A stretch of DNA of 32,073 nucleotides from Candidatus Heimdallarchaeota archaeon (GTDB lineage Archaea; Asgardarchaeota; Heimdallarchaeia; JABLTI01), in the NCBI GenBank assembly GCA_019056785.1, contig DXJV01000036.1, positions 1-32,073 on the forward strand, written 5' to 3'. Below, one piece after another: positions 1 to 3,509 of the stretch. Each line of letters opens with the position of its first letter. Within the stretch, counting starts at the first letter, position 1. The translations under genes and the position numbers were made by a program. The notes under the pieces were generated by a model. That model was not told the DNA's origin and did no database searches. It saw only the letters and a program-made list of their open reading frames with translations.

Positions 1-3
1 AAG

Positions 4-150
4 ATGAAGAAAATTTCCCCGAAAATCGTTGCCCTTGCAATGTTAATACTGTCCTTTGTTGGTGCCAGCGCCTTTGGCATCAAAACCGCAGTCGCAGGCC
101 GAAACTCCGGCGGCTTCGATAACGAATATGGTGACGGCTCAGGGGGATAA
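4..150 (+). CDS. Small secreted peptide precursor (48 aa; Sec-type signal peptide + short Gly/acidic mature peptide)
   Basis: Manual translation: MKKISPKIVALAMLILSFVGASAFGIKTAVAGRNSGGFDNEYGDGSGG*. Basic n-region, hydrophobic h-region, A-x-A sites (ASA 21-23, AVA 29-31); followed by a hairpin and T-run. Too short for the ORF track. The frame is also open at bases 1-3, so an upstream extension cannot be excluded. Confidence 0.7.
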   Translation: MKKISPKIVALAMLILSFVGASAFGIKTAVAGRNSGGFDNEYGDGSGG

Positions 151-182
151 ACCCCCAGCCAACTCACATTCTCTTTTTTTTT
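136..182 (+). terminator. Hairpin plus oligo-T terminator after the small peptide gene
   Basis: GGCT(CA)GGGGG-ATAAA-CCCCC-AGCC at 136-160, then ttctctttttttttt ending near 182. Confidence 0.55.
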
Positions 183-1033
183 CAATTTATTATCTTAAAA
201 AACTCTATGAAATCCAGCCAATCATTAGATTCTGTTACGTTAAAAGCCCAACCTTGATTTAGAAGGATTTTAGTGATATTTTGTTTGAACTCTTGAATGG
301 TTACTGGTTGAACTTTTGAAGGAGAATCTTCTTTTTCTGAAAGTCGAAGTAGTGAGATTAGAGTGTAGAATTTCTTTTGTAGATGGATGAGTTTTTCTTT
401 GCTTTCGGTTTCAAAAATAACAAGGATTGCCATTGCATGCCCATCTTTTTGACCGTTCCCATTTTTTCTGTTATAGACATCAATAATTATTCGACCAGAA
501 TGGAAAAGAGAGAAAAAATCTTTTAAAAGAGCTGAAAAATCTTTTCGCTCATTATTTAACCTAAAATTTAATTTAATTATTGTTAAAAAAGTTGTTTTGG
601 CTTTTCCTTGAATTTGGAAAAATCCTGGTGAGAGAAAGGAGATTGTTTGAGGGGGATTTGCTTTAAGTTTATCGAGAATTTGACGGGAGTCTTGGATGAT
701 AAGCTCTATACCCAAACCTTTGAAAAATGTCTGGAGAGAGGACAGTGCTTGTTTTGCTTTTATTACAAGAGTATGGGGGGTTGTTCCTTGTAAAAATAAA
801 TTTAACTGTAGAGAAGATTGGTTGTTTTTTTTGTGAGAGAAAATTAAAGAGTAGCGAACAAAATGATGTTCAAGCTGGTTTTGGATTTGTTGATTTGTTA
901 TTAAAGGAGAAAAGCTTTTCTGGATCTTTGTTTGTGGATATTTCTTTAGGGAAACAGCAATAACAAAAACATACGCACCTTGTTTTTCAAATAATAGACC
1001 AGTTCTAAATGCGCGAATGCTATTTAAAGGCAA
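182..1033 (-). CDS. Hypothetical protein (283 aa), last gene of the nadK-nob1 operon; possible internal duplication
   Basis: Long ORF; its TTG start directly follows the nob1 TAA. No confident family match. Confidence 0.7.
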   Translation of the reverse strand: MPLNSIRAFRTGLLFEKQGAYVFVIAVSLKKYPQTKIQKSFSPLITNQQIQNQLEHHFVRYSLIFSHKKNNQSSLQLNLFLQGTTPHTLVIKAKQALSSLQTFFKGLGIELIIQDSRQILDKLKANPPQTISFLSPGFFQIQGKAKTTFLTIIKLNFRLNNERKDFSALLKDFFSLFHSGRIIIDVYNRKNGNGQKDGHAMAILVIFETESKEKLIHLQKKFYTLISLLRLSEKEDSPSKVQPVTIQEFKQNITKILLNQGWAFNVTESNDWLDFIEFFKIIN

Positions 1034-2696: not shown

Positions 2697-3509
2697 TTAA
2701 CTGAGAAGCTTTTCAATTTTCGTGATCGTTTGCTTTATCAATGGAAGAAGTGGATCATTGTAAGCTTGTAAGATAACAACTGCTTTCTTTAAATAATTTA
2801 GAGAGTTTTGGAGATCTCCTTCATCGTATTTTTGAAGTCCGAGGTTAAGGAGAAGGGTGCCAAAATCCTTATCGTCTTCCTGTGTTAGTGGAATGGCATA
2901 TTTTTTACTGAAACGCCGAGCAACAATAAAACTTTTCATGGCAGAACTAAAATCACCTTTTTTGCTGGCGATTTTAGAATGATTTAACGCAATGCTTACT
3001 ACTAAACGAGGGTCTTTGCTTTTTTGGGCAAGAGAAAGAGCCTCTTCTAATAAGGGAAGGGCTTTGTCCGCGGAGCCATTTTTTTTGTAAGTAATAACAG
3101 CTAAATTTTTCAAAGCCCGAGCTTGCCCCTTCTTATCAGGAGTGTCATTTCTAATTTTAAGCGCCCGCAATTGATAGTCTTCAGCGTGTTTTAACTCGTC
3201 TTGAAGTAAAAAACTCAAAGCAATCTGGTCATAACAATCTGCCATGCCGATTTTGTTGCCATATGTTTTGAAAGAGAAATAAGCTTTTTTGTAAAAGTTC
3301 CGTGATTCAATATAATTGCCTTTATTAAAGAAAAGCTCTCCAAGAAGCCGGCAAATATCAGCATAGATGGCGTACTCATTCGATTGTTTAAAAAATTGTT
3401 GAGCAAAAAGCAACGGTTTAAGGGCACTATCAAAATCACCTACATCTATAAAGCGTTTTCCCTTTTGGTATTGTAACAAAGCATCTTCTTTTGCTTTTTT
3501 CTTGCTCAT
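2697..3509 (-). CDS. Tetratricopeptide-repeat protein (270 aa, all-helical, no effector domain)
   Basis: Repeated TPR patterns: LGELFFNKGNYIESRNFYKKA, ALKNLAVITY..ALPLLEEAL, LLNLGLQKYDEGDLQNSLNYLKKA. Confidence 0.85.
   Translation of the reverse strand: MSKKKAKEDALLQYQKGKRFIDVGDFDSALKPLLFAQQFFKQSNEYAIYADICRLLGELFFNKGNYIESRNFYKKAYFSFKTYGNKIGMADCYDQIALSFLLQDELKHAEDYQLRALKIRNDTPDKKGQARALKNLAVITYKKNGSADKALPLLEEALSLAQKSKDPRLVVSIALNHSKIASKKGDFSSAMKSFIVARRFSKKYAIPLTQEDDKDFGTLLLNLGLQKYDEGDLQNSLNYLKKAVVILQAYNDPLLPLIKQTITKIEKLLS

Follow-up and report, generated by a model that had tools for sequence, protein, structure and literature searches.

Does the very short open reading frame (ORF) at the left edge of a Heimdallarchaeota contig encode a real protein, and could this protein be the precursor of a signaling peptide? 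The stretch in question, hereafter the window, comprises 32,073 nucleotides (nt) of a Candidatus Heimdallarchaeota archaeon (contig DXJV01000036.1, here C66). An initial annotation, made from the letters of the window, read bases 4-150 as an unannotated gene for a 48-amino-acid (aa) protein, with a signal peptide followed by a tiny mature peptide, and proposed an archaeal peptide pheromone. We are highly confident that the frame is a genuine gene, that it belongs to a small-protein family of one Heimdall-type family, that canonical copies stand beside a gene for a protein of about 580 aa, and that the copy in the window is a recent duplicate without such a partner. Signaling between cells is a candidate role of the pair, to be weighed against several alternatives.

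A small coding gene and its family

The ORF runs on the plus strand from an ATG at position 4 to a TAA at 148-150 (4..150; 48 codons plus stop), and its translation reproduces the 48-aa protein of the initial annotation. The window starts at base 1 of contig C66, hence the left side of the frame looks open. An in-frame TAA lies 11 codons 5' of ATG4 on the adjoining contig C10 (open frame 56 aa), which excludes that the ORF is the C-terminal end of some longer protein. An alternative in-frame ATG six codons upstream occurs in the window copy only, within the conserved AATGGAGA ribosome-binding motif, and its frame is not kept in other copies of the family. A gene on the opposite strand was considered as well; the antisense frame of about 200 aa (C10 2-427 plus window 3-185) carries one to three stops at every other copy and was rejected. 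Homologous small ORFs in relatives number 24 or more, and close pairs differ mainly at synonymous sites (e.g., 12 synonymous versus 1 non-synonymous), with ratios of non-synonymous to synonymous substitution rates (dN/dS) of 0.02-0.3. Judged by the frame, the family alignment and the purifying selection, bases 4-150 are a genuine selected protein-coding gene, far beyond chance, and deserve to be called as a coding sequence (CDS).

Members of the family measure 43-50 aa, and 25 of them were aligned at full length. The shared pattern consists of MKK-x-x-P-K, a 13-residue hydrophobic core, a small-x-small motif (ASA, AGG, SGG and similar), the stretch Phi-x-x-K-x-x-I-A-P, a Gly-rich linker and an acidic tail, usually with a P-x-GG end. 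A second tail subtype ends in ...DTGLW, ...EDTGI or ...EDTAF. Conservation reaches at least 90% at K2, K3 and K7, and most members also have P6. In the window gene, the alignment assigns the n-region MKKISPK, the hydrophobic core IVALAMLILSFVG and A-S-A to residues 1-23 (4..72, plus strand), which would serve as a Sec-type signal peptide or else as an N-in signal anchor. The n-region is positively charged, as in Sec-type signal peptides, and the 13 residues of the h-region fall within the Sec-type range of 7-15; the sequence of this region varies across the family and its hydrophobicity is constant. Residues 24-48 (FGIKTAVAGRNSGGFDNEYGDGSGG; 73..147, plus strand) form, by the same alignment, the putative exported part, consisting of a short amphipathic segment, a linker rich in Gly and a tail of acidic and aromatic residues with a terminal GG. 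The layout of a predicted signal peptide plus short tail, which had been recognized in the window copy, is thus conserved across the aligned members.

Two cleavage sites had been suggested, one after A-V-A leaving 17 aa and one after A-S-A leaving 25 aa. The first is unlikely to be the family mode, given a Pro at +1 in most members (A-I-A-P). The second fares better: in the ASA/xGG column, position -1 is A, G or S in 25/25 members and position -3 is A, S, T, V or G in 24/25, with F, I, V or L at +1. Cleavage there would give about 22-27 aa across the family. Other export routes were rejected, namely a class III (prepilin) signal (no G/A before the hydrophobic stretch, by reading), a lipoprotein or lanthipeptide-type precursor (no Cys in the family) and a Tat signal (no RR). 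Ratios of the proportions of non-synonymous to synonymous differences (pN/pS), summed over nine independent pairs, rose from 0.15 in the N-terminus and 0.16 in the hydrophobic core to 0.25 in the middle and 0.28 in the tail. The tail is therefore the least constrained region, yet not neutral. All 4 amino-acid differences to a 92%-identical orthologue (P0001) fall at residues 38-42.

Almost every copy is preceded by a TTTTAATA box about 50-57 nt 5' of the ATG, a TTGATA/TTGAATA element at about -30 and AATGGAGA 8-10 nt 5' of the ATG, and T-rich runs follow the stop codon in nearly all members. The hairpin and T-run noted for the window gene were recovered. A stem-loop covers the last codons and the stop codon (131..167, plus strand; minimum free energy -19.2 kcal/mol, z = -3.52 versus shuffles), and a run of nine T (174..182, plus strand) is likely an archaeal oligo-T terminator by its sequence. 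This run abuts the stop codon (182-184) of a convergent gene encoding 283 aa. A scan for bacterial-type terminators did not call the hairpin and 9-T run of the window gene.

A word-based search retrieved four homologues of 36-53 aa, one of them on a 402-kb contig of a Heimdallarchaeota-labeled metagenome-assembled genome (MAG) with actin, Sld5 and MCM genes. Relatives in general carry the Heimdallarchaeota label, and related contigs encode actin, GINS and MCM. Together with the purifying selection, this agrees with the earlier view of an unannotated gene in an Asgard-like archaeon. The source genome holds five members. A six-frame search of 40 relatives recovered the small ORF in 11/11 genomes of one family (f1), with 2-5 copies each and always as open frames of 44-80 codons; with the query used, it was not found in the 29 genomes of other families of the class. 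No match for the small protein was obtained in Pfam, NCBIfam, PADLOC or PHROGs, and an ESM Atlas feature search gave a best score of 0.78, under the lead threshold. No longer or fused forms were found either, which is weak evidence. Both the small protein and its partner are annotated at most as 'hypothetical protein'.

The partner gene and its protein

Clustering of the ORFs around family members revealed one dominant neighbor family, of about 580-588 aa and with 26 instances. At the C5/C76 locus, which was pieced together from its synteny to the 402-kb contig, the small gene and a 580-aa gene converge, with about 36 nt between their stop codons. A hidden Markov model (HMM) of the partner family detected three intact partners in the source genome (C5, C76 and C98), each beside a small ORF of the family. 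Across the class, the partner profile matched 11/11 genomes of f1, 1/31 genomes of a second family (f2) and 0/40 genomes of the other families searched, with 2-6 copies per genome. The partner and the small protein hence share the same phyletic pattern. A clear family small ORF lies within about 450 nt at 26/30 partner loci, and the remaining 4/30 have weaker or truncated candidates. The pair occurs in three layouts, i.e., convergent downstream, co-directional upstream and, for the second tail subtype, divergent upstream, and four partners are flanked on both sides by near-identical small-gene copies. The cassettes are found in conserved chromosomal synteny, not in islands. A remote partner in another assembly is paired as well (L049).

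Some partner homologues outside this core were recorded separately. The single positive f2 genome (G044) contains two complete cassettes (L055:2484-2624 and L069:948-1079), which are missing from the 30 other f2 genomes and could reflect horizontal transfer or a binning contaminant. Two of the most distant homologues (L047:693-2738 and L048:1462-2751, both minus strand), which have no family-type small ORF, are instead transcribed divergently from a gene for a legumain-like protein (Peptidase_C13).

The partner matched no model of Pfam, NCBIfam, PADLOC or PHROG, and at E <= 1 Pfam yielded only one chance-level match. By inspection, it contains no signal peptide or transmembrane segment. An exhaustive profile search recovered only 111 partner clusters among 1.84 billion representatives. 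In the AlphaFold2 (AF2) model (predicted local distance difference test, pLDDT, of 82), residues of about 215-565 are modeled as two units of winged helix-turn-helix (wHTH) plus RAM (beta-alpha-beta-beta-alpha-beta). Foldseek with residues of about 215-580 matched the siroheme decarboxylase NirDL (4ch7; E 4.5e-6, 374 columns, prob 1.0), and dozens of archaeal Lrp/AsnC regulators also match at prob 1.0. The C-terminal portion of about 370 residues thus resembles Lrp/AsnC proteins and NirDL/AhbAB, with both wHTH plus RAM units in one chain. Unlike Lrp/AsnC proteins, the partner matches no Lrp/AsnC sequence profile (Pfam, NCBIfam), has an extra N-terminal domain of about 210 residues with a zincin-like appearance and has an obligate small-ORF neighbor. 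The model therefore suggests that the partner is Lrp/AsnC-like by fold only, and it could be a DNA binder or an enzyme.

The N-terminal domain (212 residues) is modeled at a pLDDT of 92. Foldseek returned nothing for it at E <= 1e-3. VIA-align aligned it with 5zum_B (Z 7.6, rmsd 4.5, 179 residues aligned), 5fwq_A (Z 7.1, rmsd 4.7, 187 aligned) and thermolysin 5a3y_A (Z 7.0, rmsd 4.6, 184 aligned), although Z-scores below 8 can reflect merely a common arrangement. Nearly all of the top 30 VIA-align matches are catalytic domains of zincin metallopeptidases, and an Atlas structure search pointed to YgjP/SprT/M48-like clusters at TM 0.31-0.35. As in zincins (thermolysin/M1/DPP III and the minimal YgjP/SprT/M48-like forms), the domain is built from a helix, a three-strand sheet, a long helix and a helical bundle. 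A zincin-like fold is thus probable on the evidence of the model. The domain departs from zincins in its middling Z-scores (up to 7.6) and in lacking the HExxH motif, which occurs in 0/60 full-length members. The only conserved positions are a Glu (E87, 55/60), the preceding Arg/Lys (60/60) and an Asn 24 residues later (N111, 49/60). The Glu and Asn recall the gluzincin HExxH...NE pattern by their spacing, not by superposition. No His, Asp or Cys is conserved among the 60 members. The missing HExxH motif and the lack of these residues exclude a metallopeptidase. If the domain is a zincin, it would be catalytically dead and at most a peptide-binding pseudo-enzyme. To judge from zincins in general, a dead zincin-type domain would keep a peptide-binding groove. 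As modeled, the partner would combine a pseudo-zincin with two fused Lrp/AsnC modules, a new domain architecture.

A further locus of the source genome resembles the cassette in its composition. At C17:16737-18381 (minus strand), two genes overlap by 8 nt. The first encodes 160 aa, with a hydrophobic signal or anchor at the N-terminus and a DFDNDG motif; the second, whose start lies in the overlap, encodes a tandem Lrp/AsnC-like protein of 389 aa, which the partner HMM matches weakly (E 6e-6). The source genome hence contains a further case of an exported protein paired with a double Lrp protein in a single chain.

The copy in the window

The source assembly comprises 102 contigs (2.87 Mb, 82.5% complete). 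Positions 1-141 of the window are repeated exactly at two other contig ends (C5:21768-21908 and C10:1-141), and C76 (1-148) starts inside the repeat. The four contig ends overlap exactly by 141 nt (105 nt for C76), and the assembly graph is broken there because the repeat exists in two copies. By synteny, C5 is joined to C76, and the reverse complement of C10 to C66. The latter join is bridged by a contig of an independent sample (X3), which begins 608 nt upstream of window base 1 and extends to base 506 without differences. The gene order in relatives is NAD kinase, PIN/Zn-ribbon protein, a 285-aa gene, a 168-nt gap, rpl1 and rpl10, all co-directional. In the source genome, the genes from NAD kinase to rpl10 are split between the minus strand of the window and the plus strand of C10, which fixes the join of C66 to C10.

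Upstream of the window copy, C10 encodes rpl1, rpl10/P0, a 99-aa ORF, a DUF4015-like gene, a PCC-domain gene, OapC and L10e. A receptor or modifying enzyme had been predicted immediately upstream; this place is taken instead by the rpl1-rpl10(P0) operon, which diverges from the small gene, and no TPR/HTH regulator, kinase or maturase was found on C10 upstream of the window copy. The gap between the 283-aa gene and rpl1 measures about 468 nt in the source genome, and the orthologous gap between the 285-aa gene and rpl1 contains no family-type small ORF in 7 relatives. The expectation of small ORFs in related genomes is hence borne out for the family, found in every f1 genome, and fails at the orthologous site. 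Synteny and the bridging contig of X3 identify window positions 1..181 (plus strand) as the right-hand part of a lineage-specific insertion of about 300 nt. The inserted unit (TATA-like box, GGAG, CDS, hairpin and T-run) lies antisense to its neighbors, with its promoter and GGAG located off the window on C10.

A third copy is located at C10:6358-6534 (L007:6358-6534; minus strand), between the L10e gene and OapC, with 83% DNA identity and no partner. A 1-nt deletion in a CCCC run leaves only a 36-aa ORF from Met12 (P0003). The same deletion is present in a contig of an independent hydrothermal-vent sample, and the frameshift is therefore true.

Two window genes were examined as possible partners of the small gene and rejected. 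The convergent 283-aa ORF (185-1033, minus strand, TTG start) has no Pfam or NCBIfam match. As a decayed partner it is contradicted by a tblastn similarity of only E 0.026, by the lack of a match to the family HMM and by its conservation as a single-copy gene, found in 11/11 genomes of the genus always between the PIN/Zn-ribbon (Nob1-like) gene and rpl1. A 270-aa TPR_12 protein (2697-3509, minus strand) was dismissed as a receptor, since it consists of ordinary repeats and has no HTH. It matches RNPP_C at E 0.013 with 15.5 bits against a cut-off of 26.5. Its gene lies 2.5 kb from the small gene, past three unrelated genes, and near no other copy of the family.

What the pair may do

Gram-positive bacteria and their phages are known to use peptide pheromone circuits. 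In the shp/rgg groups of the RRNPP family, convergent, divergent and co-directional layouts all occur, and streptococcal SHPs also begin with MKK and end in GG. The Asgard pair resembles RRNPP systems (Rgg/SHP, PlcR/PapR, NprR/NprX, Rap/Phr and AimR/AimP) in that a tiny export-type ORF stands beside a cytoplasmic HTH-containing ligand-binding protein, in several paralogous cassettes per genome and in three layouts. Adjacency of propeptide and receptor genes, as in RRNPP systems, is seen family-wide at the 26 of 30 partner loci and is lacking for the window copy. Duplicated propeptide genes are also known for RRNPP systems (PMC11343458, PMC7425212). The differences are substantial. In place of a TPR domain, the partner has a zincin-like domain and two Lrp/AsnC modules; its HTH units are central and C-terminal instead of the N-terminal XRE-type HTH of RRNPP; the host is an Asgard archaeon and not one of the Bacillota or a phage; and the hydrophobic part is followed by an acidic, Gly-rich tail of 22-27 aa. 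The RRNPP-like gene context initially proposed therefore stands insofar as canonical members adjoin an HTH-containing protein of a ligand-binding type, and fails insofar as this protein has no TPR. The pair is at most an RRNPP analogue and not a member, since the defining TPR receptor domain is absent.

We tentatively propose that an exported peptide is sensed by the adjacent regulator, in an analogue of RRNPP systems made of different parts, a reading that could well be wrong. The small protein would be inserted N-in via the Sec pathway and cut after the small-x-small motif (A-S-A in the window copy), which would release an acidic peptide of about 25 aa. The adjacent regulator would bind this peptide, or a trimmed form taken up again; the most plausible sites are the substrate groove of the dead peptidase-like domain and the RAM interface. 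The two wHTH modules would then alter transcription, also that of the peptide gene with its conserved TATA/TTGATA promoter. Cassettes that are paralogous but differ in the tail might serve as separate channels, and the orphan window copy might add dosage of the peptide of the C5/C76 cassette. That the family and its partner constitute a peptide-based system for cell-cell or self-sensing in Asgard archaea, with a dead zincin-like domain fused to tandem Lrp/AsnC modules, is possible and a little more doubtful still. Under this signaling reading, each genome would possess several private channels distinguished by the peptide tail. A receptor combining a dead zincin-like peptide-binding domain with a single-chain tandem Lrp/AsnC unit would be an architecture not known from bacteria.

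Contact between the two proteins was assessed by co-folding of their alignments. The pair scored 0.52 against 0.02 for the best of three controls, a value in a range where, according to the tool, a pass is wrong more often than right. Of the solved complexes, 58/80 reached the mark, as did 2/110 mismatched pairs, and scores of at most 0.60 account for only 7 of those 80 complexes and for both passing mismatches. At least 30% of contacts are shared between the runs, and the pLDDT of the partner is 38 or more. Co-folding thus provides weak support for binding in the models, which together with the obligate adjacency keeps a direct interaction possible.

Several observations weigh against the signaling reading, beyond the co-fold range and the ambiguity of middling Z-scores. 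No interface was reported in the co-fold, where the small protein's own pLDDT is 38-44. Residues 8-31 are nearly all hydrophobic or small, and a permanent membrane anchor is equally possible. Expression, secretion, cleavage and re-uptake are all postulated steps; a listing of public sequencing runs showed no RNA data set for this genome, which speaks neither for nor against expression. The partner is cytoplasmic, so that sensing would require import of the peptide, and no importer is linked to the cassette. No diversifying selection on the tail was seen in close pairs, where selection is purifying (pN/pS 0.28). NirDL provides a precedent for this Lrp-like fold being an enzyme and not a DNA binder. 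The flanks of the three most distant partner homologues (P0085, P0067 and P0053) contain no family-type small ORF. Finally, the window copy has neither the TTGATA element nor a partner and may be heading for decay, and its sister orphan on C10 is frameshifted.

An alternative that we likewise hold to be possible but doubtful is that the partner, as an Lrp/AsnC-type factor of about 580 aa, senses amino acids or small peptides and controls the adjacent small gene, with the two proteins never touching. The small protein would then be an anchored or exported effector, perhaps with a surface, stress, metal-binding or antimicrobial role. This reading as a whole is nearly as likely as signaling. Lrp/AsnC regulators classically control their neighbors and bind small ligands at RAM, in line with the fold match. 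The conservation of TTTTAATA and TTGATA 5' of partnered copies, the C17 locus, where an exported protein is translationally coupled to a tandem-Lrp protein, and the weakness of the co-fold support point in the same direction. However, regulation of a mere target leaves the fused, dead peptidase-like domain with its peptide groove unexplained. The same applies to the private small gene kept by each of 2-6 paralogous regulators in three orientations, to the identity of the orphan CDS with a partnered copy and to a co-fold score that, though weak, lies 0.50 above every control.

For the window copy only, a non-functional, decaying duplicate could be the by-product of local duplication or gene conversion, which we consider unlikely. 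Such decay would fit the absence of a partner within reach (the partner-family HMM found no match in the window or on C10), the empty orthologous site in 7 relatives, the missing TTGATA element and the real 1-nt frameshift of the other orphan on C10. Yet the CDS is intact and identical at 147/147 positions to the partnered copy joining C5 and C76, despite several differences between the short homologous untranslated regions (UTRs) of the two copies. An identical CDS with diverged UTRs suggests gene conversion or very recent copying. The window copy has also retained its TATA-like box (TATTTAAAAA), AATGGAGATCAA, the hairpin and the T-run, and contigs of independent samples show the same arrangement with no differences. 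That the CDS is intact and identical and the signals are retained argues that the window copy may still contribute product.

Least convincing, and in our view improbable, is a membrane-active small toxin with a neutralizing or repressing partner (a toxin-antitoxin or addiction module), in which the hydrophobic protein would damage membranes and the partner would either bind the cytoplasmic precursor or repress the small gene: the family is multi-copy, lineage-restricted and duplicates into unrelated intergenic sites, one copy is frameshifted also in an independent sample, the protein is basic and then hydrophobic, and the co-fold lends weak support to contact, but no PADLOC or PHROG model matched, the cassettes occupy syntenic chromosomal sites, an antitoxin of 580 aa and three domains would be unusual, and harm would be expected from an orphan toxin copy whose promoter is intact. 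Bacterial small single-pass proteins and type I toxins share with the family a size below 50 aa, a basic N-terminus with one hydrophobic helix, omission from gene calls and multiple copies. They differ from it in that the family has a Gly-rich acidic C-terminal tail under purifying selection, with a P-x-GG end unlike pore-forming type I toxins, conserved small-x-small and A-P motifs after the helix, and a protein partner instead of an antisense RNA.

A literature search found no report of a peptide pheromone circuit or peptide signaling in archaea, and to our knowledge no peptide-based signaling system has been described in this domain. The pheromone idea is somewhat encouraged by the family context. 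Experiments could draw on about 45 natural pairs of peptide and partner, on a defined promoter motif and on a 580-aa protein that is soluble and can be modeled with confidence. The window copy shows how a mini-gene spreads as a self-contained transcription unit of about 300 nt. Even if the pair consists only of a regulator and its private exported target, it would represent a new small-protein family mostly missed by gene callers and, as a pseudo-zincin fused to a double Lrp/AsnC, a new domain architecture. Either way, small gene and partner gene constitute a two-gene module that is compact, conserved and present in multiple copies, and it belongs to the archaeal lineage that is closest to eukaryotes.

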